DNA from: Flavobacteriales bacterium
GTDB lineage: Bacteria; Bacteroidota; Bacteroidia; Flavobacteriales_D; Crocinitomicaceae
Reading direction: 5' to 3'
Assembly: GCA_022361195.1 (NCBI GenBank)
Contig: JAKSBJ010000129.1
Span: 1-45,198 of the forward strand
Length of the DNA stretch: 45,198 nt
Below, piece by piece: positions 1-35,010 of this stretch. How positions within the stretch are numbered: position 1 is the first letter of the stretch; the number at the start of each line of letters is the position of its first letter. Below the pieces are notes generated by a model. It worked only from the letters and a program-made list of their open reading frames with translations, did no database searches and had not been told where the DNA came from. A program made the translations under genes and the position numbers.

Positions 1-218
1 CTGTAATGAGTACGTTTTACCCAATGATGTCCTGCATCGTCTCTGGCATGCTCTGTGTCCCCTTCTTTATATCGATAAACCCTTCCTTCTGCTCCTTCTG
101 GATCTTTAATCAACTGAAAAACCTGATCATCAGATTTTTTTCTTTGAACTACAGCATGAGCCGCAGCCATTTGAGTCACTTCCTCATTATCCTGATATCT
201 GTACTGCGCTGCAACCAT
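1..218 (-). CDS. Hypothetical protein, 5' partial in window (N-terminus MVAAQYRYQDNEEVTQMAAAH...). Its ATG overlaps the TGA of the upstream GH25 gene (ATGA), so the eCIS operon continues past the window start.
   Basis: I translated the minus strand by hand from 218 downward. The frame stays open to position 3 with no stop. The start codon at 218-216 shares bases with the stop codon 220-218 of the preceding gene. This ORF is absent from the supplied ORF track because it has no stop in the window. Confidence 0.4.
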   Translation of the reverse strand, partial: MVAAQYRYQDNEEVTQMAAAHAVVQRKKSDDQVFQLIKDPEGAEGRVYRYKEGDTEHARDDAGHHWVKRTHY

Positions 219-1009
219 CAGCTCTTTTTACTTTTTGAAATGAACTTTTTCAACTCGCTCTCATTCCCGTTAAAAACATCCAAGTCGTTCTTCGTATTCC
301 CTAACATATAATGATCACTCATTTGCCAGAAGGTCCAGGTCGTCCAGCCTCCAAAGAGTTCAGGGGTACTATCTGAATAGTCTGCCACCCAAAGCGGATA
401 ATCAGCAAAGGCAGAATCAGTTAAATTGGTTTTACCAAAGGATGAATTGGTATAAATAATGGGAACATAATTGGTTAGTTTTTCTACTTCTTGTATAAAT
501 ACCAAAAGACTATCCATATCCGCCGCAGTACAAGCCGACCCTTTTGATTGGTTTTCAATATCAACGATTGGAGGCAATACTTTATCTCCAAAAGTTTTTA
601 CCTGATTGACGTAAAACTGAGCCTGAGCTATTGGAGAATCCTCACAACGATAAAAATGATAATAGCCTGAATAGTACTTGGATGAATCTAAAAAGACCTT
701 ATTAGAATCAAATTCAGGATCGACGTAGGTTATTCCTTCAGTTGCTTTGCAGATGATGAAACTAAGTGAGTCACTCAATTGGTTCGTTTTTCTGATTTCA
801 TCTCCCTGCCAATGTGAGACATCAATTCCGTAAGCATAAGCCCCGGGATCGCTTGCTACTGTTCCACTTCCCGAACAGTTGGTACAACACCCCAACACAC
901 CACATACTGCTGTTACTGCTTTTTTTTCATAGGCGAGAATGACAGTAGAAAAATGAGCTCCTAATAAAACAAATGGTATAGCTATCAAAATGAGACACTT
1001 GAGTTTCAT
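218..1009 (-). CDS. GH25-family lysozyme (N-acetylmuramidase) with an N-terminal signal peptide and a Cys-rich segment. Last complete gene of the eCIS operon.
   Basis: GH25 motifs are visible in the translation: GIDVSHWQG, IICKATEG, GYYHF and PPIVDIENQ (the DxE catalytic region). The hydrophobic N-terminus MKLKCLILIAIPFVLLGA fits a signal peptide. A 4-nt overlap with the upstream ORF indicates co-transcription. Confidence 0.8.
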   Translation of the reverse strand: MKLKCLILIAIPFVLLGAHFSTVILAYEKKAVTAVCGVLGCCTNCSGSGTVASDPGAYAYGIDVSHWQGDEIRKTNQLSDSLSFIICKATEGITYVDPEFDSNKVFLDSSKYYSGYYHFYRCEDSPIAQAQFYVNQVKTFGDKVLPPIVDIENQSKGSACTAADMDSLLVFIQEVEKLTNYVPIIYTNSSFGKTNLTDSAFADYPLWVADYSDSTPELFGGWTTWTFWQMSDHYMLGNTKNDLDVFNGNESELKKFISKSKKS

Positions 1010-1575
1010 ACTTCAACTTTTAACCATTCAATTAATATCTCCCAACTCTCAATATCTAACTCTACAGGTCCAATCCAATCTTTGTTCTCATAATGAGGCG
1101 CTGAACAGAAGTTGTTGTTCTCTGTTAGATCTTTGATTCGCTCTATTTCTGCTGAGTAATATCTTTTTTCAAATGGAATTCCGCTCAAAGCTTTGATTAA
1201 ATCCTGATTAATAAGGGGAAGTCGCTCAAATGTTGCTCCCAATTCTTCATTCCAACTAAAATCAATTTCTTCATCGTCTTTTCCCAAAAGCATTCTTCTT
1301 AATCGAAGTTGATTGTGAATTTCAATTTTCAGATATTCATCCAATAAGTGCATTAAATCCTGCACCTCTCCTTTATTCCTTAAAATCAGAAAAAGATTTT
1401 TATTGGTCATCAAATAGCCTACAACCCTCATTCCATTTGAATGAATACAGTAGTTTAAGCCTTTTGCCAGCATTAGTTTACATTGCGAATCAAGGAAATA
1501 GTCCTTCCAATCCGTCAACCTCAAGGTTAGAGGTTGAAGATTATCAGGAATTTTATTTGATTCAAAAACTTCCAT
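1006..1575 (-). CDS. Hypothetical soluble protein, 189 aa, with no transmembrane segment and no recognisable motif. It sits between the eCIS ATPase and the lysozyme.
   Basis: This is an ORF-track ORF in the same strand and operon context, with an ATGA overlap onto the GH25 gene. It has no hydrophobic stretch, so it is not a holin. Confidence 0.45.
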   Translation of the reverse strand: MEVFESNKIPDNLQPLTLRLTDWKDYFLDSQCKLMLAKGLNYCIHSNGMRVVGYLMTNKNLFLILRNKGEVQDLMHLLDEYLKIEIHNQLRLRRMLLGKDDEEIDFSWNEELGATFERLPLINQDLIKALSGIPFEKRYYSAEIERIKDLTENNNFCSAPHYENKDWIGPVELDIESWEILIEWLKVEV

Positions 1576-1582
1576 TTAAAAA

Positions 1583-2944
1583 CTAATAATCAGCCTTTTG
1601 AATTGTTTTATTTTCTTTGTTGTACTCACGTTTAATGCCTTCTAAAATATCATCTGATGTCACCTGGCTATTATCTCGCTGAACAGCTTTTAAAGCACAG
1701 AAACGTAGCACATTAATGATTGATCCTCCAGATAGCTCAAAGTCTTCTGCAATACGGTATAAATCCAAGCCTTCTTCCAAGGTACATCCAGCAGAAAAGG
1801 CATTTTGCCAAAGTAGAAGCCGCTCTTCGACAGAAGGAATCGGGAAATTGATCATTGCTTGAAAACGTCGGGTAAAAGCCTCGTCCATATTAGCTTTAAG
1901 GTTAGAAGCCAAAATGATTACTCCTGGATAATCCTCTATCCTTTGTAGTAAGAAGGACGTTTGTTGATTAGCATGGCGATCGTTGGAATTATTAGCAGCA
2001 GTACGTTTTCCAAACAAGGCATCCGCCTCATCAAAAAACAGTATCCAGTCTTTGTACTGCGCAATGTCAAAAATACGAGCCAAATTCTTCTCTGTTTCTC
2101 CAATATATTTAGAGACAATCATTGATAAGTCAACCCGATACACTTCTCTTCCAGAAGCCTTCCCCAATAGCGTTGCAGTTAAGGTTTTACCCGTTCCGGG
2201 AGGGCCATAAAACAAGGCCCTGTAGCCTGGTTTTATCATTTTATCCAACCCCCAATCATTCATGATTAGAGAAGAATGATCCAGCCAAACCGAAATCTCT
2301 TCCAACTGATTCATTACCACATCTGAAAGCACTACATCTTCCCACTCCATTTTAGTTGTAATCAGTTGAGCAGGAAAATTGGCACTGTGTTGAATTTTAG
2401 GTTGTTCTCCAGTAATAAAATACTGCATCCATGAATCACTAATACTTAAAATTCCATTTAAAGATGGAATGTGATCATCTGTATCACCCAACAAGAGAAT
2501 TCGTTCTTTTATTAAAATGCTATTTCGTCCTAGCACCCTATTTACTTCCAGTCTGAATTCAACATCAATAGTAGCAATGAGAAAGCAATAAGTTTGCCCA
2601 GTAGGTAAAAAACCACTGAAGTTTTTATCTACTACTCCACCAAATTCGGTAAAACCACGATCGTAAAGTTGATTTCGACCAAAGAAGATATCCAATACCT
2701 CGGGTTTTAAATGAGGCGAAATGGCCAAAATAAGTGCCAGACGATCAAAAACATTTAATTCGTGTTCTTGTACAAAATTGGCATAAGGACAATCTATTTC
2801 ACTTAAATCCGGAACCGGAATATCCATCCAGTGTTTTTCGTGCCCTTCTTGTAATAAATAGGAACGAATTACCTGATCAATAACTGCTTGTAACCAATCA
2901 ATCTCAGTATATAAAGTTGATATGGCTACATTTTTATCTTCCAT
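1583..2944 (-). CDS. eCIS-type AAA+ ATPase (Afp15/Pvc15-like, single AAA domain).
   Basis: Walker A is LFYGPPGTGKTL and Walker B is ILFFDEADALF. Downstream of these sit a sensor-1 region and an arginine finger region (SNLKANMDEAFTRRF). A roughly 230-aa N-terminal non-AAA domain is present, as in Afp15-family ATPases. Its position after the tape measure and accessory genes also fits. Confidence 0.85.
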   Translation of the reverse strand: MEDKNVAISTLYTEIDWLQAVIDQVIRSYLLQEGHEKHWMDIPVPDLSEIDCPYANFVQEHELNVFDRLALILAISPHLKPEVLDIFFGRNQLYDRGFTEFGGVVDKNFSGFLPTGQTYCFLIATIDVEFRLEVNRVLGRNSILIKERILLLGDTDDHIPSLNGILSISDSWMQYFITGEQPKIQHSANFPAQLITTKMEWEDVVLSDVVMNQLEEISVWLDHSSLIMNDWGLDKMIKPGYRALFYGPPGTGKTLTATLLGKASGREVYRVDLSMIVSKYIGETEKNLARIFDIAQYKDWILFFDEADALFGKRTAANNSNDRHANQQTSFLLQRIEDYPGVIILASNLKANMDEAFTRRFQAMINFPIPSVEERLLLWQNAFSAGCTLEEGLDLYRIAEDFELSGGSIINVLRFCALKAVQRDNSQVTSDDILEGIKREYNKENKTIQKADY

Positions 2945-3854
2945 TTGAATTAAAGAGTCGGCTTATATCGTCCAGATCAAAATCGGCCCATTTGAAATAC
3001 AATAAAGCTGTATTTGGATTGAGTTCATTGGCTTGTAACATATCGAGCAGACTCCCCTGAACATTGTTGGATACCTGTGGAGAATAATTCACCATGTCAT
3101 ACTCAAAATTGTAATCGTAAAATTCACTGGCCCATTCGTACACACCCTTTCGACGATTGATTAAATCACTGATAAAGTGGTCAAGTTTATCGTTTTTTAC
3201 TTTGAGCTTTTTAGCCTTAAAAAAGTGCGGTTTTCTTTTCACCTCGCGGTGGTAATATTCTATTTCTTTGGATTGAACTGTTCGTGAGGTTTCATGTCCA
3301 AAGAGATCCACCAACCCGTGATTTTCGGTATTAGTGGCAATTTCAAGCTCTCCTTCTTCCGATCCGCAAATGGCTAATGTCCAATTTGAAGTAACCGCTG
3401 TTTCAGTTACCACATAAACATCCCTGAAGGAGAAGTTAGTTTGAGTTAATTTGATGATTAGCTCATCAGCAATAATGTTCCAATTATTGATTCTGACTGA
3501 TTCAGGATTTGTTCCTTTAAAAAAGAAGCTTCCATATCCATCAAAAGCCAATACCTGTCGACTATATTCAAATTGTCCATCAATTAAATTCTCTCCTACT
3601 CCCCTTCCTGAATAAGGTTTGGTAACTCCTTGATGAAAAGACCAATTAGCTGCATGAAGAAGGTTTGCTGAACTAATATCGCAATTCTCCGGACTCACCA
3701 ACTTATTCATGTAGATGTTTCCCAAAAGGGTTATTTCTCCATTGTTGATTTGAAAAAAATCACCCGGGTGAACATAATGCCCCAAAGGAATTGTTGGAAC
3801 GAATCCTGTGCGATTATAGCAGGATTGATAATAATTTTGAAATACTTTTTCCAT
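2934..3854 (-). CDS. Hypothetical protein, 306 aa (eCIS accessory, cargo or fibre candidate). No HExxH motif and no known motif recognised.
   Basis: ORF-track ORF whose start overlaps the ATPase gene by 11 nt. A strong hairpin lies immediately upstream. Confidence 0.45.
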   Translation of the reverse strand: MEKVFQNYYQSCYNRTGFVPTIPLGHYVHPGDFFQINNGEITLLGNIYMNKLVSPENCDISSANLLHAANWSFHQGVTKPYSGRGVGENLIDGQFEYSRQVLAFDGYGSFFFKGTNPESVRINNWNIIADELIIKLTQTNFSFRDVYVVTETAVTSNWTLAICGSEEGELEIATNTENHGLVDLFGHETSRTVQSKEIEYYHREVKRKPHFFKAKKLKVKNDKLDHFISDLINRRKGVYEWASEFYDYNFEYDMVNYSPQVSNNVQGSLLDMLQANELNPNTALLYFKWADFDLDDISRLFNSNGR

Positions 3855-3870
3855 AATCGAAAAATTAGTA

Positions 3871-3905
3871 AATCCTCAGCATAAAATTGTTTTACGCTGA
3901 GGATT
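3871..3905 (-). promoter_or_regulatory. Intra-operon stem-loop with 10-bp perfect arms (aatcctcagc / gctgaggatt) and a 15-nt loop, in the 62-bp gap between the 275-aa and 306-aa genes. Possible attenuator or mRNA-processing and stability element.
   Basis: The inverted repeat was read directly from the sequence. On the minus strand it is followed by TACTAATTTTTCG, a weak T-tract. Confidence 0.4.
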
Positions 3906-3916
3906 TTATGGAAATA

Positions 3917-4744
3917 TTACGAAGCCAAAGCCGCCGCATTCGCAGCTGCATATCCAGACTGCAAAGACGTTAGTTTTACCTGAGCCTTTTCAAGGTTAGA
4001 TTGTGCTTCATTTAACTGTTTTGCTGTTAATGTATTAGCATCTTGAGCTTTTTCATAATTCTTCTCAGCTTCCTGATAAGCCTTATGGATTAAGTAAAAC
4101 AAGGATGCCTCCTGATCTTCAGTGGCTTTTCCATCACTATCGGTTCCCGTATAAACCTCCAATAGGTTCACCGCCTGCATAAATTCAAGCGAAGAAATAG
4201 CCTCTGTTTCCTTATTGGATGATTGCGTGGTATAAGTAGACTTTAGAGCGACCAAAGTTGCGGCTACCGCATTATTAGCATCTTGACCGGCTGTTCCCAA
4301 AATGGTGATTAATTCATCAGAAATCAGCGGGTTTTGAGCTTTTCGGCGAATGACTAAATTCGACAACTTCTCAATCATCTCAGCAGAATAAATCAGCTCT
4401 TTAATCATTTGAGTGAGATTCTTTGTCAAATCATCAACCTTAACATCAGTCTCTGACATTTCTTCTAATGCAATTTCAGAACTGTTTTTAAGATCTGTTA
4501 GGTTCTTTAGAACATCCTGAGCTAAATCCCAATTGCTGAGAGCAGTAGCTCTTTTTGCATCAGCTGTTTGTAACAAAGCCGTGAATTTATTCGACTTTTC
4601 GGTTAAGGAAGTAACCATTGCTTCAAATTGTTGAACCGTATATTCAGCATTTCTTACCTCTTCTTCTAAAAGATCTAATTCAGCTTTTTTTCGTTCAGTA
4701 ACCCCGTATCTTTTTTGTGGGGCATTTATTGTGATATTGTTCAT
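3917..4744 (-). CDS. Hypothetical coiled-coil protein, 275 aa, rich in Ala/Ser/Thr/Gln with a heptad-like periodicity. eCIS accessory or cargo candidate.
   Basis: Sequence composition (for example LEEEVRNAEYTVQQFEAMVTSLTEK and LNEAQSNLEKAQVKLTSLQ). It lies inside the operon 25 nt downstream of the 854-aa gene. Confidence 0.45.
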   Translation of the reverse strand: MNNITINAPQKRYGVTERKKAELDLLEEEVRNAEYTVQQFEAMVTSLTEKSNKFTALLQTADAKRATALSNWDLAQDVLKNLTDLKNSSEIALEEMSETDVKVDDLTKNLTQMIKELIYSAEMIEKLSNLVIRRKAQNPLISDELITILGTAGQDANNAVAATLVALKSTYTTQSSNKETEAISSLEFMQAVNLLEVYTGTDSDGKATEDQEASLFYLIHKAYQEAEKNYEKAQDANTLTAKQLNEAQSNLEKAQVKLTSLQSGYAAANAAALAS

Positions 4745-4768
4745 TTTATTTTCTTTTTAAGTTAATTA

Positions 4769-7333
4769 TCAAGATTCCGGACTTATAACCGTTTGGTATT
4801 TGAATTTGGCTGTACTATCGATATCAGAAAGTTTATTGGTGAACTGAGCCAAATCTTCCTCATTTGCTGTCGAATACGTCAATACTACAGGAATGTAATA
4901 AGCGTCTTCTACTAACAAATTTCCAAAGTTGTCAGTCGTGTTCGACTCAATAGTTACTTGCCAGGTTTTATCGGCACCTCGGGCTTCTGCATCAATTATG
5001 TCTGCCACGGTATAATTTGCTGTCGAAACCTGCTCCGCAATATCCAAATCAAAGAAGAATGACAGTGTTCCTAGCTGTTTTCCAAACTCTTTATCAATTA
5101 ATACTGCAGAACCGCTTAAGCCACTTAACCCCTCTTCAAAAGAATTTAACGCATTTTCTGCTTCCTGACTTAACACTTTTTCTTCGGCCTTTAAATCCTT
5201 CAAATCTTTCTTAGATTGCTTTAAAGAGTCCTTCAGTTCACTAAGAACTGCTTCTAACTTGGTTTTTTCGCTGTCAGTAAGGTTAGGATTTTTCAACGCC
5301 TCCTCAATGGTACTTACTTCGTTATTAAAACCACTTATTTCATTCTGCTTTTGTTTAATCTCGGTTTGTTTAGCCGCTACTTCTCCCTGTTTATTAAAAA
5401 CCCCTTTCTTATTTGTGACTTGAGCTTGTAGATCTGTTTTAAATGCATTGAGAGCATCAGTCTGAATTTTGTACACTAAGTACTTATCAATTGTAGCAAG
5501 GGAATCTGTTTCAAATTGTCCCAGATCATCCTGAGAGACAATTTTAAGCTCATCTACCATTTGCTCAAAAGTATCAAAGTTGGAAGTGATTTTCATTTGT
5601 TTGATACGAGCAATGTCCTTATTCATGGAAGCTTCAGTCTCTTTGAGTTTCGCTGAAAGTTCCTGGTATTTATTCTTCAGCTCATTGGCTTTTGCAGTAT
5701 CTCCATCGGCCAAACATTTATGGATTTCAGCTTTTACTTCTACCATCTCAGCCTGAATACTTAAGATCGTTGACGAATAAGCCTCAAAGACTTTTTGAAC
5801 CATTTCATCAGCCTTTTCAATAGAGTTGAGTTCTTTTTCGGTTAAAAGATTAGCCGTGATGTCTGAATTGGCAGGAATAAACATACAACGATATTCTACA
5901 TCCTGACCTTTATTAACGCTTTCGTTTAGTTTAAACTGCATAGTTTGACGCAAGAACTTCTTGTTCAGGTCTTCCTCTCTCTCCTTACGAATCTCAAACT
6001 TCTTAGTACCGTTACTAACGTCAATTTCAATGACATCAAACTCTGTTACCATTGATAAATCTTCCTCTTCGCTTTCAACTGTTATATTTGAGGCTATTGG
6101 TCCTCCCAACTCACTTGTCAAAGTAAAAATTGGTGAGGAAGCAGAAAGGAAATTCTCGAAATTGTTGATTTCTGACTTATAACTCTCAAGGTACTTGGCA
6201 AAGACAAAAACAACATAGCTTTTACCAAACTCTATCCTCTCATTATCAGTATCTCTCAAGGTTGTGTACTCTGATACATCAGCATCAATTTCATAAGAAT
6301 CTTTGCCATCATTAGGAACAGAAATTAACCGTTTGGTTGTGGCCACAGTAGAAGGATCCGTATCTACATTGAAAATATTTTCGGCAGTAGCAATGTTGAA
6401 TATTCCTGATTTATTGCTCTTAACGATGAAAACGGCATATTCCTGTACTGGATATGTATAGTCTATCTTCTCAATACCCAGACTTGTTTTTGTCACTTTA
6501 GGGAAAGGACTTAGAAGCGCATCAAAAGAGATTTGGAACTTCAATTCTCCCTCTACAGTATTTACTGGAAATGTAACATTTGCAGTCGTCAGACTCATAT
6601 TGAGTTCACTGTTCATCAATGTATAGGCCGAATTGGCTGCATAATAATCCGTATTCGCATCTTCCAGATTCCCTTCGGCTACTTTTTCTTTTGCACTCGC
6701 CACTGCCAATGCCTCATTATCAGCGGTAACCTGCTCGTTAGCAGCATCATATTCTGATGTGGCAATTTTTAAAAGATCCTGAATAGAAGTATTGGCTACT
6801 GTTGCCTGCGCTTCTACATTTGCAGAAGAAACTTCTGACATCAAGGCAGAGGACTCCATGGCATACTGCGAAGTTACCTCTGCATGAGAGGCAGTAATGT
6901 CCATATAGTGCTTTGTTGTTTTACAAAGATCATAGATATCCGTTCCATAGTCCGCAGCATTGATAATACTCGAAATGCTTCCCATATCGCTTGCCAGCTT
7001 TACAACAGCATTTGTTGCGATTTGAACATTCGCCGCTGAAACAGCAGCATTGGATACAGACAAATCAGAAAATTGTTTTTGCTGCTTAGCAGAAGTCAAA
7101 ACATTAATTGAATTGTTACTGTTTGTAACTGCTCCCTTTTTTACGGCAGCTTTTTTATCGGAATCTTGCTCGGCCTCATCCAATTTTTCGGCATCCGTAA
7201 TTGTTGCCTCCTGGGCATAATAGAGAGTAAACTTGGACGCATTCATAGATGCCTCCATTTTCTTTTGCTCCAGCTCTTGCTCGTTGAGTGAATCAACGAC
7301 ACTTGAACGCAGATTATCGTTATAGGTATTCAT
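4769..7333 (-). CDS. Hypothetical 854-aa protein. It has an N-terminal Ala/Ser-rich helical region, a central beta-rich domain, a long coiled coil (roughly residues 500-780) and a C-terminal globular domain. Tail-fibre-like, cage or cargo candidate of the eCIS.
   Basis: The domain layout was read from the translation. It sits immediately downstream of the tape-measure candidate in the same operon, preceded by a 66-nt AT-rich gap. Confidence 0.45.
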   Translation of the reverse strand: MNTYNDNLRSSVVDSLNEQELEQKKMEASMNASKFTLYYAQEATITDAEKLDEAEQDSDKKAAVKKGAVTNSNNSINVLTSAKQQKQFSDLSVSNAAVSAANVQIATNAVVKLASDMGSISSIINAADYGTDIYDLCKTTKHYMDITASHAEVTSQYAMESSALMSEVSSANVEAQATVANTSIQDLLKIATSEYDAANEQVTADNEALAVASAKEKVAEGNLEDANTDYYAANSAYTLMNSELNMSLTTANVTFPVNTVEGELKFQISFDALLSPFPKVTKTSLGIEKIDYTYPVQEYAVFIVKSNKSGIFNIATAENIFNVDTDPSTVATTKRLISVPNDGKDSYEIDADVSEYTTLRDTDNERIEFGKSYVVFVFAKYLESYKSEINNFENFLSASSPIFTLTSELGGPIASNITVESEEEDLSMVTEFDVIEIDVSNGTKKFEIRKEREEDLNKKFLRQTMQFKLNESVNKGQDVEYRCMFIPANSDITANLLTEKELNSIEKADEMVQKVFEAYSSTILSIQAEMVEVKAEIHKCLADGDTAKANELKNKYQELSAKLKETEASMNKDIARIKQMKITSNFDTFEQMVDELKIVSQDDLGQFETDSLATIDKYLVYKIQTDALNAFKTDLQAQVTNKKGVFNKQGEVAAKQTEIKQKQNEISGFNNEVSTIEEALKNPNLTDSEKTKLEAVLSELKDSLKQSKKDLKDLKAEEKVLSQEAENALNSFEEGLSGLSGSAVLIDKEFGKQLGTLSFFFDLDIAEQVSTANYTVADIIDAEARGADKTWQVTIESNTTDNFGNLLVEDAYYIPVVLTYSTANEEDLAQFTNKLSDIDSTAKFKYQTVISPES

Positions 7334-7399: not shown

Positions 7400-10300
7400 T
7401 CAATAACTCCAATTAACATGTAAAGGCTTTTTCATCCATGGATATTTGATAATTGAAAAGGAAAAAGGAGATTGATTTAAGAGAACATCATAAGCTCTCT
7501 TTTCTACATTCAACTCCCACCTATCTATACTTTCAACCAACAAACCTTCACGTACTAACCAATTTCCTCTGAACCCCATAGTGGAAGTTTCTCCTATTTG
7601 AGACCAATGTGATCCCATTGCCGTTAGCATACCGTTAATTACATCTCTATCGTCCTCTGGCATTTCTTCTAAGGCCTCAATTGGTGTTGATGGATGAATT
7701 CCGCACAGAAGTTTATTTAAGGCCAGGAAGCCTTCATCTACATCAATCACAGAAGTAGCTACAAATTGTAGGTAATAGACTGCTTTGTATTGTGCTTGCT
7801 TATCAACAAATTCGCCATCAACCAACAAACCGCAACGCTCAAACAACATAGACAAGTAGTTGTTAATGAGCACTAGGCCCGCGTTTTTCACATAAATTCC
7901 AGTTGCCTCAATCTCTGGTTCCTCCTCCTCCCACAACTCTTCTGTAATTTCCTCCTCAATCATATCCTCCTGAACTGCTATAAGCTTTTTAGGCAAAGGA
8001 TAACGCTCCAATTCCATTCGATAAGCCGCTGGAAGTGCAAAAGACAGTTCTGCAAACTCTACCAACAACTCATCTCTCGACCAGCCTTGTAATTGTTTTA
8101 ATTCCCAGAATATCTCTTTCCAAAAAGTATCTCCTCTGAAAAAATTCCAATCATTATTTTTCCAACTCAAAAAGAGTTTTTGATAAATCAAATCTTTTAT
8201 ACTGACCAGTAGAAGGCGATTTGAACTGATTTGGTTAAAAGCCAAATAAAGCTCCTGAATTCTTCCCATTAAGGTTGCTTGAGTTGGATTTACCTTAGAA
8301 ATAGAGGTAACGAAACGCTCAAAGGAAATCAGTGATTTGAAATGAACTTTTTTGACCGCTTCATTTTTGCTTCTTCTAATTTCAATTAAGAAGTTAGAAA
8401 CAGACCGTTCCAAAAGCTTATCTACCCAATTTTTTAAGGATGTTTTAGAGTTAAATTTGAGCCAGGAAGGTGTTTGTCCATACTGAATCAGGTAATACCA
8501 TACTTCTCTCACCTCATTATCACTGAGTAAATCAATGTTCTTTTTTAGCTCTTCTGTTTCATTAAAAATGACATCATCAAACAAACTTTTTACCGTTTCA
8601 TTTTGTTTTAGTGCCTTTATCAAGCCTTTTGAAAAATGGTCTCTTTGGCTGGCTATGACTGTCAAAACCTCTTCAGAGTTTAAGGCTGAATTTAGCATGA
8701 GTTCTTCCAAGGTAATTTCGATTAGCTCACTTAGGAACTTATTGACATCTCCACCTTTTGCCAGTACTTGCTGAATTGCGTCTTCAAATTTTTGCTCAAA
8801 AGAAGCATCCTTATACAGTAGCTCCTTTGCGAAGAAATACAATTCATGAGCTGCCTTCATCCACAATCCATAGTTAGATGTGCCTTGAAAGGCAAATAAA
8901 ATCTCGTGAATTCCTATTTCATGGACAATACTAAGTTGTTCAGTCTTTGACAATTCCTTTTCAAACAAGATGGCAAAGACTTCTGGTTTCTCGTTCAGAA
9001 TAAGCTTCAGCAAGTCTATTCTTGAATAAACAGCCTTATTAAAAAAGATTTCCTTCTCCCCAGTTTTAAAAAGCTTTCGGAAGGTTTTATAATCAAACAC
9101 TGTCCCTTCTACCTCGCTTAGTTTTTTTCTTAATTTCTTAAGCAACTTTGGAGAAACTTCGGTAGTTGAGATAAATTGAGAAGAAGAATTTATTTGATGG
9201 GAATTAATGATGCTTTCAAAAAACAGATCTTCCAGCTTACTCATAGTCACCTGAGGACCTACAGTCAATAAAATATTCCACAATACATCTTCAAAAATGA
9301 GTTGAGTATTTCTTATCGAAGAATTCTTTATTGTAAACTGTTTCCAAAATACCTTGAGTTTCTCAATTTTAGAAAGAGATAACTGTGGAAATAGATATTC
9401 TAAAAGGGATTCCAAAACCGGACTTTCGGCAAGTCTGATTTGTATGAATTCCTTGTCATAGTAAAGCTTTTTGAGCAATAAAATGAATTCAATTTTCGTA
9501 TTAGTTCCCTGCTCTTTCCAGAATTTCACTTTTGTTTCAAACGACAACTCTTGTTGTATTTGAAATTCAATAACAAAAGCTTCAATTTGACTCTGAGAAA
9601 GAGTAATCTTATTCCCAATTCGTTGAAAGTAGGCCTTAGCTAGCTCTAGAAAATAAATTCTCTTTTCCTCCGTCAATTTAGAGGCATAACTCAAGAAAAT
9701 TTGTTGAATCTCTTTAAACTTTAGTTTTTCATTCCGGACGATATATTCTCGTCCTATTTCGGCTGAAATATTCAACAAAAATTGGTTAGAAAAAGGCAGT
9801 TCCAACTGATCTGCAACAGCAAATAATTGATCCGTAAACCACTTCAACAGTGGATGGGCATCATTCCATTTCTTAACTAAAGTATGGAAAACGTTATCTG
9901 GGATGATTTGAGGTAGTATTTTTCTCAACCCTTCTTTGTCCTGATAATTCAGAAGGTAGGTCAAACTTAATTCAGCATCAGCTTGCAAAATTTTCCGTAA
10001 GTGCTCCAAAGAATTAGACTGTTGTGCAGTAATATCTACCGTTCCACTTTGTTGAATAAGTTGTTCCAATATCTTTCGGAATAGTTTTTCACTCAATTGT
10101 GAATGTCCCATTTCTGAAGCGAGTTGGTCAAAATAAAGTGCTTTGGTATTGACTTTCCAACTACTTTTCATGGACGTCTGTGGATTGTTTATTAAAGTCT
10201 GCACCACAGTTCCCTTTTTCAATTTGCTTTTTTCTTCAAATTCCTGGGCCCATAATTGTATCCAGTTTTTAGAAGTCAAATCGTTGGGACGAAGGAGCAT

Positions 10301-11548
10301 GTTATTTAAAACTGAAATCCAGAAGTTTTTTTCATCAAAACGTTCCAAACTATCTACCAACTGCTGTCTTAAGCTTTCAAAATGGACAATATATTCTGAG
10401 GAAGATCCTTTTAACCAAGTCTTCACAAGAGTTTTAGCCACATCTGCATTCAGGTGAACAGACAGTCTTTTTAATGCTTTAGAATCCAGATCAGCCTCAA
10501 TAATTTGCTTAAAGCGCCTTTCATCCTTTTGAACTAAAGCAGGTAAAAGCTCATTTAAATGCATTTGCCTTTGCCGAACCTTTTTATCATCCCCTTTAAG
10601 GTATTGTGTAAAACTCTTCCAATGAATTTCTGAAACGCTTTGATGGCCTGCTTTTTTAACAGGAATGGCATCATTTTCAGCTATCGCTCTGATAACATCC
10701 ATAAAGTCCGACCTTAAGGACATTTTCTGAGAGATTTCATCAATGGCCTTACGAATCATGTCTAAGAGTTCATAAAAATCCAAACCATAATGAGCTGCCA
10801 TTTGAGAAATGATACTTCGGGTAAAAGAAATTCGGTTAAATAAGGTTCCTCTTTCGGTTAGTAAGAAGTTCAAAACCCACCACCACACTTTTTTTCGGAA
10901 TTCGGAGGCCCCCGTTTGCACTACAGTTTTTCCCGACTGAATTTTCACCAACTCATCAGAGAATCCTATGATGCTTTCGTGATTATTTGGTTCTAAGCCC
11001 TGAACAATTTTTCGGATCGTAGCATCCTTGATTTGCCAGGCCATTCTCTTTCTAACCTTTTCAGAACGTCCTAAACTTCTGATGAGCCTAATAAACTGCT
11101 GCTTCTCACTTAAGAGTAAATGGTTGATGATTTGATCTACTGTTCCAAACTCAGAGCGATATGACCAGGGGAAATAACCTTTTGCAAAGTATTTTCCAAT
11201 TACCTCCAATTGAGATTCCTGCTTACGTATAATCTGTATATTCTTTTCCCGTTGATAAGAGTCCAGCGTGAGACGTAATAGCTCATTCATGAGTTCAACT
11301 CCCAATTTTTGGGTTAACTCACGTTCGAGATTTTGATAATCCACCTCTCCTAAATCAATTTCAAGCCTGTCTATTCGCCAAATTTGATCTTCGGGGCAAA
11401 CTTTATCAAAGACTCGATTTAATTCCCTACCCAAAGGTTCTTTACTCCATGAACTGATTCTATTTTGCAATTCTGTTGCAAAGGCACGATCATCCAAACT
11501 GGTTTCCCAGCCAAACTTTGAAATGATATGTCCAGAATCTTTAGCCAT
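7400..11548 (-). CDS. Putative eCIS tape-measure / tail-length-determination protein (Afp14-like), 1382 aa, predominantly alpha-helical.
   Basis: Its size and helical, low-complexity-free composition fit a tape measure. Its position immediately after the two large baseplate genes and before the ATPase matches Afp/PVC synteny. I recognised no catalytic motif. The call rests on synteny and composition only. Confidence 0.4.
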   Translation of the reverse strand: MAKDSGHIISKFGWETSLDDRAFATELQNRISSWSKEPLGRELNRVFDKVCPEDQIWRIDRLEIDLGEVDYQNLERELTQKLGVELMNELLRLTLDSYQREKNIQIIRKQESQLEVIGKYFAKGYFPWSYRSEFGTVDQIINHLLLSEKQQFIRLIRSLGRSEKVRKRMAWQIKDATIRKIVQGLEPNNHESIIGFSDELVKIQSGKTVVQTGASEFRKKVWWWVLNFLLTERGTLFNRISFTRSIISQMAAHYGLDFYELLDMIRKAIDEISQKMSLRSDFMDVIRAIAENDAIPVKKAGHQSVSEIHWKSFTQYLKGDDKKVRQRQMHLNELLPALVQKDERRFKQIIEADLDSKALKRLSVHLNADVAKTLVKTWLKGSSSEYIVHFESLRQQLVDSLERFDEKNFWISVLNNMLLRPNDLTSKNWIQLWAQEFEEKSKLKKGTVVQTLINNPQTSMKSSWKVNTKALYFDQLASEMGHSQLSEKLFRKILEQLIQQSGTVDITAQQSNSLEHLRKILQADAELSLTYLLNYQDKEGLRKILPQIIPDNVFHTLVKKWNDAHPLLKWFTDQLFAVADQLELPFSNQFLLNISAEIGREYIVRNEKLKFKEIQQIFLSYASKLTEEKRIYFLELAKAYFQRIGNKITLSQSQIEAFVIEFQIQQELSFETKVKFWKEQGTNTKIEFILLLKKLYYDKEFIQIRLAESPVLESLLEYLFPQLSLSKIEKLKVFWKQFTIKNSSIRNTQLIFEDVLWNILLTVGPQVTMSKLEDLFFESIINSHQINSSSQFISTTEVSPKLLKKLRKKLSEVEGTVFDYKTFRKLFKTGEKEIFFNKAVYSRIDLLKLILNEKPEVFAILFEKELSKTEQLSIVHEIGIHEILFAFQGTSNYGLWMKAAHELYFFAKELLYKDASFEQKFEDAIQQVLAKGGDVNKFLSELIEITLEELMLNSALNSEEVLTVIASQRDHFSKGLIKALKQNETVKSLFDDVIFNETEELKKNIDLLSDNEVREVWYYLIQYGQTPSWLKFNSKTSLKNWVDKLLERSVSNFLIEIRRSKNEAVKKVHFKSLISFERFVTSISKVNPTQATLMGRIQELYLAFNQISSNRLLLVSIKDLIYQKLFLSWKNNDWNFFRGDTFWKEIFWELKQLQGWSRDELLVEFAELSFALPAAYRMELERYPLPKKLIAVQEDMIEEEITEELWEEEEPEIEATGIYVKNAGLVLINNYLSMLFERCGLLVDGEFVDKQAQYKAVYYLQFVATSVIDVDEGFLALNKLLCGIHPSTPIEALEEMPEDDRDVINGMLTAMGSHWSQIGETSTMGFRGNWLVREGLLVESIDRWELNVEKRAYDVLLNQSPFSFSIIKYPWMKKPLHVNWSY

Positions 11549-33636: not shown

Positions 33637-35010
33637 TTACTTCCCAATACAAAAATTAGAAAAGATATTCCCCAACAAATCATCGGAGGAAATTTGACCG
33701 GTAATTTCACCTAAAAGATTGAGCGTTTCCCGAATATCCATGGCCAACAAATCACCTGGTATTTGCATTTCAAGCCCCTCTTCTACTTTCACCAATGATT
33801 CTTCACATCTCACTAAAATCTCATAATGACGAATGTTGGTAACAATTAACTGATCTTCGGCACTTTCGTTTTGAACGGTGGCCAACAACTGTTCTACCAA
33901 TTCATTGAGGTTCTCTTGTTTTTTAGCAGAAATGAACAAACCTTTATCCTTTAGCTTTTTAAAATCCTTTGATTTGGTTTTATCTACTTTATTGAAAAGA
34001 GCAATTAGGGTTTGTCCTTCTCCCAAAGTCTTTTGTTCAAAGTTTTCAATCTGCCCCAACACAAACTCTTCGCTAGAAGTGTCCAAATCAAACAATAATA
34101 GAACTACCCGGGCTTTTTTGATTTGTTCAAAAGCACGTTCAATTCCCAAGTTTTCAATGGTATCAGAGGTTTCCCGAATTCCAGCAGTATCAATAAATCG
34201 GAATTCAATTCCTTCCAATACAATGGTATCTTCAATTACATCTCTTGTGGTTCCAGCAATGTCCGAAACAATGGCCTTATCTTCTTTTAAAAGGGCATTG
34301 AGTAAGGTTGACTTTCCAGAATTTGGAGCACCTACAATCGCTACCGGAACTCCATTTTTACTGGCATTTCAATATTGAAAAGATTGACAAAGTGAAGTCA
34401 CCTTAGCTTTCACCTGACTCACCAATTCTTTTAATTGCGTACGATCAGCAAACTCAACATCCTCCTGAGAAAAATCTAACTCTAATTCAACCAATGAGGC
34501 AAAATCCATCAATCCCTGACGCAATTCTGAAATCTCTTTGGAGAATCCTCCTCGCATTTGATGCATGGCCAAACGATGAGCTGCGGAAGAATTCGCAGCA
34601 ATTAAATCTGCCACCGCCTCTGTTTGAGAAAGATCCATCTTGCCATTCATAAAAGCACGTAACGAAAATTCACCCGCTTGGGCCATTCGTGCTCCTTTTG
34701 AAATCAATAACTTCAACAGCTCACTTTGAATGTATTGTGAACCATGACAAGCAATTTCAACTGTGTCCTGTCCTGTAAAAGAATGGGGACCTTTAAATAA
34801 AGTAACCACCACTTCATCTAAAATATGATCACCCTTTAAAATTTTACCATAATGTGCTGTATGAGAAGCTGCATTTTCAATCGACTTACTAAAAATAGAT
34901 TGGGTAATTGAAAAAGCCTTTCCTCCCGACAAACGGATTAAAGAAATGGCTCCAACTCCATTGGCAGTTGAAAGGGCACAAATTGTATCTTCCTGATTTT
35001 TAAAGCTCAT
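33637..35010 (-). pseudogene. mnmE: tRNA modification GTPase MnmE (TrmE), interrupted by an in-frame TGA at 34369-34371. It is otherwise full length and colinear. The interruption may be a nonsense mutation or a sequence error.
   Basis: The N-terminal part (34369..35010) reads DTICALSTANGVGAISLIRLSG. The same frame continues after the TGA as NASKNGVPVAIVGAPNSGKSTLLNAL (G1 motif), DTAGIRE (G3 motif) and the terminal FCIGK motif. The two ORF-track ORFs are in the same frame, separated only by this codon. Confidence 0.7.

Follow-up and report, generated by a model that had tools for sequence, protein, structure and literature searches.

What is encoded by the genes between the tape measure and ATPase genes of a contractile injection system (CIS), and do they supply cargo or machinery? 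The question arises at a locus on a complete 45,198-bp contig (hereafter, the window) from a Flavobacteriales metagenome-assembled genome (MAG), in which a CIS operon occupies the minus strand from position ~25364 to 218. An initial annotation of the window had singled out three uncharacterised open reading frames (ORFs) in this slot and offered two explanations for them, either new structural or accessory parts or cargo together with its chaperones; the lengths and coordinates that it gave were exact. We refer to these ORFs as X (854 aa; 4769–7333), Y (275 aa; 3917–4744), and Z (306 aa; 2934–3854), all of which lie on the minus strand and begin with an ATG codon. Our comparative analysis revealed that X, Y, and Z form one conserved accessory module of clade-Ib-type CISs, which is neither a polymorphic payload nor a phage-derived tail part, and structure prediction suggests that Z adopts the fold of the pore-forming domain of gasdermins.

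Scanning one genome per species with a Z alignment, we found a relative in at least 144 species and retained the best 80 loci, all from Bacteroidota, whose genera include Flavobacterium, Kordia, Dokdonia, Tenacibaculum, Pedobacter, Mucilaginibacter, and Terrimonas. All CIS proteins of the window were then compared to these loci by tblastn. The order tape measure, X, Y, Z, ATPase, and a 189-aa protein is kept in approximately 73 of the 80, and X, Y, and Z remain together in the rearranged loci (L029, L031, L053, and L066). Y is present in 75 loci, and homologues of X were found 171 times. Median identity to the window proteins is highest for the ATPase (62%), followed by Z (55%), Y (46%), an 894-aa baseplate protein (38%), X (36%), and the tape measure protein (31%). 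Such ordered conservation in dozens of genomes shows that X, Y, and Z are real genes and not chance ORFs.

The module extends beyond Bacteroidota. An exhaustive profile search grouped the relatives of Z into 108 clusters at 50% identity, reaching down to approximately 17–20% identity. In a MAG of Candidatus Acidoferrum (Acidobacteriota), the genes are ordered as tape measure protein, a 580-aa protein, a 472-aa protein, a Z-like protein of 281 aa, an AAA protein, and an eCIS_core protein; a MAG of Arenicella (Gammaproteobacteria) shows the same gene order, with homology confirmed for Z and the neighbours assigned by layout alone. By local hidden Markov model (HMM) searches, the Acidobacteriota locus L081 and the metagenomic loci L084 and L085 were each found to encode homologues of all three proteins; the large neighbours there correspond to X (E 7e-130 to 3e-54) and the middle ones to Y (E 3e-72 to 3e-28). 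Another four loci, including that of Arenicella, combine a confirmed Z homologue with a matching layout. The ATPase gene does not adjoin Z in L084 and L089.

Intact Z genes also occur singly or on remnants (L077:7787–8710, L044:10001–10918, and L024:3331–4254), either alone, as in Flavobacterium shii, or within a decayed CIS locus devoid of X and Y. Such lone genes suggest that Z can be maintained, and may even function, independently of the other components.

The initial annotation had described Z as a protein with no recognisable motif. At the sequence level this description stands, as Z has no match in Pfam, NCBIfam, PHROGs, or PADLOC, and both single-sequence and profile searches of the PDB were empty up to an E-value of 10. 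At the level of the fold, however, it does not. An AlphaFold2 prediction made with 29 close homologues reached a predicted local distance difference test score (pLDDT) of 47, and a 79-sequence alignment that includes distant relatives was used instead; the resulting model has a pLDDT of 90.4 and a predicted template modelling score (pTM) of 0.86, with all five models at a pLDDT of 88–90. Searching the PDB with this model in Foldseek, we found that the top 11 matches are all gasdermins, with E-values from 6e-6. They comprise the bacterial gasdermin (bGSDM) of Vitiosangium as pore and as slinky oligomer, the Bradyrhizobium and Runella bGSDMs, the Trichoplax gasdermin, the GSDMA3 and GSDMB pores, and the fungal protein RCD-1. 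The predicted model contains the characteristic features of the N-terminal pore-forming domain, namely the alpha-1 helix and a twisted beta-sheet with extension hairpins, and has no structural relative among predicted viral proteins. The fold search, which had been suggested along with the initial annotation with an eye to baseplate or fibre proteins, thus led to gasdermins instead.

The gasdermin-like domain spans approximately residues 1–220 of Z. It is followed by a long helix (aa 221–245), a poorly conserved loop with a pLDDT of 64–68 (aa 246–264), and a C-terminal peptide (aa 265–306) that is the most conserved stretch of the protein, with invariant L273, N276, L278, T282–L284, Y286, F287, W289, D295, D296, and F301, many of them hydrophobic. 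Bacterial gasdermins carry a flexible cleavage loop and a hydrophobic C-terminal inhibitory peptide, and the modelled loop-plus-peptide layout of Z is consistent with this autoinhibition arrangement. Like the gasdermins of Runella, Bradyrhizobium, and Vitiosangium (PDB 7n50–7n52, 8sl0, and 9a84), Z falls in the range of 250–310 aa and has no transmembrane segment; their flexible loop and the conserved hydrophobic C-terminal peptide behind it may have a counterpart in the model of Z, and one member of the Z family is fused to a caspase (see below). Z differs from them in its additional 25-residue helix, which brings the C-terminal region to approximately 85 aa, and in its genomic setting: it is encoded alongside X, Y, and an AAA+ ATPase in a CIS operon, not in a defence island, and mostly has no protease next to it. 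It is also more widespread, with relatives in at least 144 species representatives compared with 50 of 38,167 genomes for canonical bGSDMs.

The fused member is a 578-aa protein of Desulfovibrio inopinatus (WP_027183108.1; L083:10001–11737), in which a Z-like domain (aa 6–226, E 7e-37) is joined to a Peptidase_C14 domain (aa 301–567). It is encoded outside any CIS locus and is followed by an unannotated gene for a 283-aa protein. This fusion links the Z family to the gasdermin–caspase theme.

We also looked for a dedicated activating protease of Z and rejected the idea, as no protease family recurs and CHAT genes occur near three loci only. These genes (L086:10567–12504, L089:16732–18711, and L010:19176–20066) are located downstream of the trio at a distance of a few kb, in two cases after a pair encoding an ECF sigma factor and a TPR protein. 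CHAT proteases are too rare to be general activators of Z.

The partners of Z remained uncharacterised by all sequence methods tried, and the earlier statement that none of the three proteins resembles an Afp13-type fibre was borne out; X, Y, and Z all lack an HExxH motif. X has no match in Pfam, NCBIfam, or PHROGs, and its PADLOC matches are limited to coiled coils at chance level. In profile searches of the PDB, the coiled-coil region matches coiled-coil proteins only and the N-terminal and central domains match nothing. We distinguish four segments in X: a conserved Ala/Ser-rich N-terminal domain (aa 1–240; nt 6614–7333), a conserved central domain with variable loops (aa 260–500; nt 5834–6556), a coiled coil of variable length (aa ~499–750; nt 5084–5839), and a conserved C-terminal domain with the motif TDNFGN...YxP (aa 745–854; nt 4772–5101). 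The Ala/Ser-rich character noted previously was confirmed (17% Ala and 12% Ser in the first 240 residues). The coiled coil reported earlier is likewise supported, by heptad-like segments at residues 499–583 and 649–750, with the correction that it spans about 250 residues and not 280. While the N-terminal, central, and C-terminal blocks are conserved, the coiled coil varies in length and is here approximately 180 aa longer than in typical homologues. The protein starts with a near-invariant MNxYNxNL, is acidic (142 D+E versus 83 K+R), and has no transmembrane segment. The possibility that X is a protease was rejected, since it has no conserved histidine.

Y is helical and likewise without a match in Pfam, NCBIfam, PHROGs, or PDB sequences, and PADLOC again returned chance-level coiled-coil matches only. 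It had been described as coiled coil throughout; heptad-like stretches are indeed present at aa 17–133 and 234–271, and they do not cover the whole length. Its C-terminal end is near-invariant (...SLQSGLAAANAAALAS): the tail SLQSG(L/Y)AAANAAALAS (aa 260–275) corresponds to the last 16 codons (nt 3920–3967), 72 of the 75 homologues end in "AS", and AAALAA is the ending of the two long-form distant homologues (Acidobacteriota locus L081 and metagenomic locus L085). By analogy, this tail is reminiscent of the ssrA-type degrons that are read by AAA+ unfoldases. Y was also considered as a paralogue of the N-terminal domain of X, which was rejected at an hhalign probability of 0.8%.

A further element separates Z from its two partners. 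In a scan for terminator-like elements, the Y–Z junction (3870–3906, minus strand) proved to contain a 17-bp stem-loop and, after it, a T-rich tail. Of 70 related loci, 53 have a stable hairpin at this junction, with differing sequences; the Kordia group lacks it. Measured over the 70 nt upstream of Z, the median z is −2.96, compared with approximately 0 at three control junctions. The hairpin is probably an operon-internal attenuator, terminator, or RNA-processing site, with each of these functions a candidate. Its position groups Z with the ATPase, the 189-aa protein, the GH25 muramidase, and the cargo genes, and X and Y with the structural genes.

Downstream of Z, the operon continues with an Afp15/Alg15-type AAA+ ATPase gene (1583–2944, minus strand; Pfam AAA, E 1e-26), whose start codon lies inside the end of Z in an 11-nt overlap that is kept across loci. 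It is followed by the gene of the conserved 189-aa protein (1006–1575, minus strand), which is present in 66 of the 80 loci at approximately 28% identity and has no family match in Pfam, NCBIfam, or PHROGs scans. The last gene before the contig end encodes a GH25 muramidase (218–1009, minus strand; Pfam Glyco_hydro_25, E 7e-37) with an N-terminal hydrophobic helix (aa 6–24, hydropathy 2.32) that, to judge from the sequence, is either a signal-anchor or signal-arrest-release (SAR)-like. Of 150 ORFs downstream of the ATPase, 14 belong to the GH25 family, which recurs there more often than any other non-cargo family and is the only recurrent enzyme.

Where, then, is the payload? The initial annotation had expected it among X, Y, and Z, having observed that the spike (599 aa) and PAAR protein (99 aa) carry no toxin extensions. 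The latter observation is correct, as the two proteins contain VgrG and PAAR domains only; the former expectation did not hold. According to local HMM searches, 62 of the 80 Bacteroidota loci encode one to four DUF4157/eCIS_core proteins of 104–1783 aa downstream of the ATPase; such proteins were likewise detected in four of the five distant loci examined, and a Pfam check confirmed the eCIS_core domain, at times joined to nuclease domains. These proteins are the real polymorphic payload. In the closest relative of the window, the Crocinitomicaceae locus L001, the GH25 gene is followed by genes for a 379-aa protein and for a 1788-aa protein with the DUF4157/eCIS_core motif (L001:14811–20177). 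In the window, the contig ends 217 nt past the GH25 gene, so that its payload genes are cut off.

The cargo repertoire of the lineage includes fusions of eCIS_core with Endonuclease_NS_2, neighbouring APOBEC-like deaminases, and GH-E HNH nuclease domains (for example, L005:12826–13863, L084:16061–17395, and the downstream ORFs of many loci).

In AlgoCIS, DUF4157/eCIS_core proteins are lumen cargo; to be loaded, they need Alg15, an AAA+ protein, as well as an N-terminal loading sequence that is disordered, and stably folded proteins were reported not to be loaded. Pfam searches identified the DUF4157 domain in none of X, Y, and Z. A check of the N-terminus of Z for a packing signal, as had been suggested, revealed a well-folded segment (pLDDT 94–98), unlike the disordered loading sequence of AlgoCIS cargo.

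All known gasdermins act on the very cell that produces them, breaching its membrane from the cytosolic side. A Z protein of this kind would by the same token act on the membrane of its producer, and we tentatively propose that Z perforates this membrane so that the particle, which is built in the cytoplasm, can exit together with the action of the GH25 muramidase. We give this proposal somewhat less than an even chance. Extracellular CIS (eCIS) particles are released when cells lyse, and for its release the gene transfer agent (GTA) of Caulobacter relies on a co-opted tripartite system of the cell-death type and not on a holin–endolysin pair; a hydropathy scan found no holin-like transmembrane segment in X, Y, or Z. 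In SalCIS, a trimeric "fibre" and a transmembrane peptidoglycan hydrolase act as an anchor in the inner membrane. According to our proposal, particles would be built first, Z would then perforate the cytoplasmic membrane of the producer, and GH25 would subsequently deal with the cell wall. The outcome could be lysis of the whole cell, freeing the particles, or a local breach at the membrane-docked baseplate, as proposed for SalCIS.

How Z might be controlled is the most speculative step. As no protease is linked, the C-terminal peptide would have to be released by other means; the translationally coupled AAA+ unfoldase might free it, or X and Y might act as a tether or inhibitor. X and Y themselves are most likely particle-associated scaffold or fibre-like parts that would position or restrain Z, as may be supposed from their elongated coiled-coil nature, their invariant terminal peptides, and their location upstream of the conserved hairpin. 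The wider claim, that a sequence-divergent gasdermin family has been built into the CIS operons of at least three phyla as a membrane-breaching device controlled by the AAA+ protein, X, or Y and independent of proteases, we regard as doubtful at present.

Several observations weigh against the exit proposal. The assignment of the gasdermin fold rests on a predicted model, and pore formation, toxicity, and lysis are predictions that follow from it. Neither Z nor the 79 family members match any gasdermin sequence model (Pfam Gasdermin, PADLOC bGSDM, or PDB gasdermin sequences). The N-terminal consensus of the family, MxxVYxKFYRxFYxRT, contains no cysteine, and Cys12 of the window protein is not conserved; moreover, the putative membrane hairpins show a weak alternation of hydrophobic residues. 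Neither the operon genes nor most of the remaining larger ORFs in the window were found to encode a protease domain, and no protease family recurs among 150 downstream ORFs of related loci. GH25 was detected by tblastn in only 17 of the 80 loci. A simple lysis role leaves unexplained why Z is so strictly co-conserved with two large, structural-looking proteins. Finally, AlgoCIS is released by lysis, yet its published list of 18 genes, as inferred from the text of the paper, does not include the trio. Given the lack of similarity to gasdermin models, of a conserved N-terminal cysteine, and of a linked protease, we do not file Z as a canonical bGSDM; the model instead points to a new, sequence-divergent gasdermin-fold family. 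What is new is the sequence family, together with its operon context and its set of partners, and not the fold. We found no literature joining gasdermins with CISs, eCISs, or tailocins, which, as the coverage was incomplete, is absence of evidence only.

Alternatively, the trio could be purely structural, a fibre, spacer, or membrane anchor in place of Alg19/Afp13-type fibres. In this reading, X would form a trimeric coiled-coil fibre with Y as its partner or assembly factor, and Z would serve as a non-lytic adaptor with a gasdermin fold, for example, in baseplate docking to a membrane. The canonical fibre slot, between the Afp12-like and tape measure genes, is indeed empty in the window; X combines conserved ends with a coiled coil of variable length and variable loops, and X and Y are conserved to a degree similar to that of baseplate proteins. 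The invariant terminal peptides of X, Y, and Z suggest docking contacts, and SalCIS, with its "fibre" and membrane anchor, is the closest solved relative. On the other hand, X, Y, and Z match no fibre or baseplate family among PDB sequences and PHROGs, and the Z model has no counterpart among predicted viral proteins. Conservation between phyla sets the C-terminal domain of X apart from receptor-binding tips, a non-pore role of the gasdermin fold is not known, and Z is placed after an attenuator-like hairpin together with non-structural genes. On balance, we consider a purely structural trio unlikely.

In Afp/PVC loci, afp13, which encodes the fibre, comes before the tape measure gene. The initial annotation had taken the slot between the tape measure and the ATPase as the place of fibres; a fibre catalogue, however, puts them downstream of Afp11/12 in approximately 90% of loci. 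Its option of new structural or accessory parts, in contrast, fits what we found, namely conserved components of Bacteroidota CISs.

Could Z instead act in the target cell, as a conserved pore-forming effector that is injected? It is established that gasdermins work from the cytosolic face of the membrane, which is where a CIS delivers its cargo, and a concept of a "core effector" exists for SalCis20; moreover, the spike and PAAR protein of the window are devoid of toxin domains. However, the folded N-terminus of Z offers neither a disordered loading sequence nor a DUF4157 domain, and a stable fold is at odds with what was reported for loading into AlgoCIS. The conservation and fixed position of Z differ from those of the variable downstream effectors, and in L084 and L089 the ATPase gene is not beside Z. 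Both the caspase fusion and the existence of orphan Z genes speak for a cell-autonomous function. We therefore judge an injected Z to be improbable, to about the same extent as a purely structural trio.

Bacterial gasdermins are defence effectors, and with orphan copies and the CHAT proteases near three loci in mind, Z might be taken for a defence gene of the gasdermin type. We consider this very unlikely, because Z holds a fixed operon position over three phyla, overlaps with the ATPase gene, and co-varies with X and Y, whereas a linked protease or sensor is missing in most loci and PADLOC models do not recognise Z. Least credible of all is that the trio is a lineage-specific, lumen-loaded payload with its chaperones, comparable to Afp17/18, the Pvc effectors, or Cgo1/2: the lack of family annotation, the proximity to the ATPase, and the absence of a toxin fused to spike or PAAR would be in keeping with this option of the initial annotation, which comparative genomics has nevertheless largely refuted, as the trio is syntenic and conserved, all of its families are found together in an Acidobacteriota locus and a gammaproteobacterial locus has a matching layout, separate and variable DUF4157 toxins exist, none of the three proteins begins with DUF4157, and at least Z, with its structured N-terminus, lacks the known loading signal.

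The remainder of the operon encodes the CIS core. It starts with a Pvc16_N cap gene, a 272-aa gene in the cap-adaptor position, the sheath, two gp19-type tube proteins, and a CIS_tube initiator, and continues with VgrG, PAAR, gp25, a 1262-aa Baseplate_J protein, and the 894-aa baseplate protein. The CIS_TMP tape measure gene (1382 aa; 7400–11548, minus strand; Pfam CIS_TMP, E 5e-95) lies directly upstream of X, and Y, Z, the AAA ATPase, the 189-aa protein, and the GH25 muramidase follow as described above. The sheath is closest to that of SalCIS (9r9h, E 2e-112), followed by AlgoCIS (7adz) and the Anabaena tCIS (7b5h); both SalCIS and AlgoCIS have been placed in clade Ib. With its Afp-like core set and a sheath nearest to clade Ib structures, the locus is a clade-Ib-type CIS.

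The three systems share with the window the core from cap to tape measure and AAA+ protein, including the long Afp11-like and Afp12-like proteins. Further features shared with clade Ib systems are the DUF4157 cargo, present in relatives of the window, and a transmembrane peptidoglycan hydrolase, as in SalCis19. The window differs in having no gene in the Alg19/Afp13 fibre slot, and the published gene lists of AlgoCIS (18 genes: Alg1–18 homologues, Alg19, and Cgo1/2) and SalCIS (SalCis1–21), as inferred from the papers' text, do not contain X–Y–Z. The resemblance of X to the Afp13/Pvc13 and Alg19 fibres is one of general plan only, with conserved ends and an elongated coiled-coil shaft; in contrast to these, X has no PDB fibre match, is encoded after the tape measure gene, and has a C-terminal domain that is conserved rather than variable.

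Similarities also exist to systems that release tail-like particles. Phage and tailocin lysis cassettes have in common with the window a muramidase at the operon end and the breach, proposed here, of first the membrane and then the wall to free a tail-like particle. The window differs from them in having neither a small transmembrane holin nor spanin-like genes, and the candidate for the membrane breach is a soluble protein with a predicted gasdermin fold. LypABC, which serves GTA release in Caulobacter, offers a parallel in being a tripartite module of the cell-death or immune type that was co-opted for a domesticated, phage-derived particle. It comprises CARD, peptidase, and NLR-ATPase domains and includes no gasdermin, whereas the module described here has a gasdermin-like protein without a peptidase or NLR.

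Beside the operon start, the segment 25571–32678 encodes a 308-aa protein with a LuxR-type C-terminal region, unannotated plus-strand ORFs of 133, 411, and 243 aa, two LytTR response regulators, and a TPR histidine kinase; these flanking genes are possible regulators of the CIS operon. Further along the window, the mnmE/trmE GTPase gene is split into two ORFs (33637–34218 and 34369–35010), with the G domain partly missing between them, which reflects either a frameshift, a MAG assembly error, or a pseudogene.

The exit of cytoplasmically assembled particles is poorly understood for most extracellular CISs as well as for the membrane-associated clade Ib systems, and Z, coupled to the AAA+ ATPase, provides a concrete and testable candidate for this step. 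If the proposal is true, gasdermins would serve not only in cell death of the immunity type but also in the working of a secretion nanomachine, and Z would represent both a route of gasdermin activation without a dedicated protease and a new class of conserved CIS component. Telling exit and accessory genes apart from cargo matters directly for the engineering of CISs as delivery tools. X, Y, and Z furthermore supply three marker families for a large, uncharacterised CIS lineage that includes culturable Flavobacterium, Kordia, Dokdonia, Pedobacter, and Tenacibaculum.

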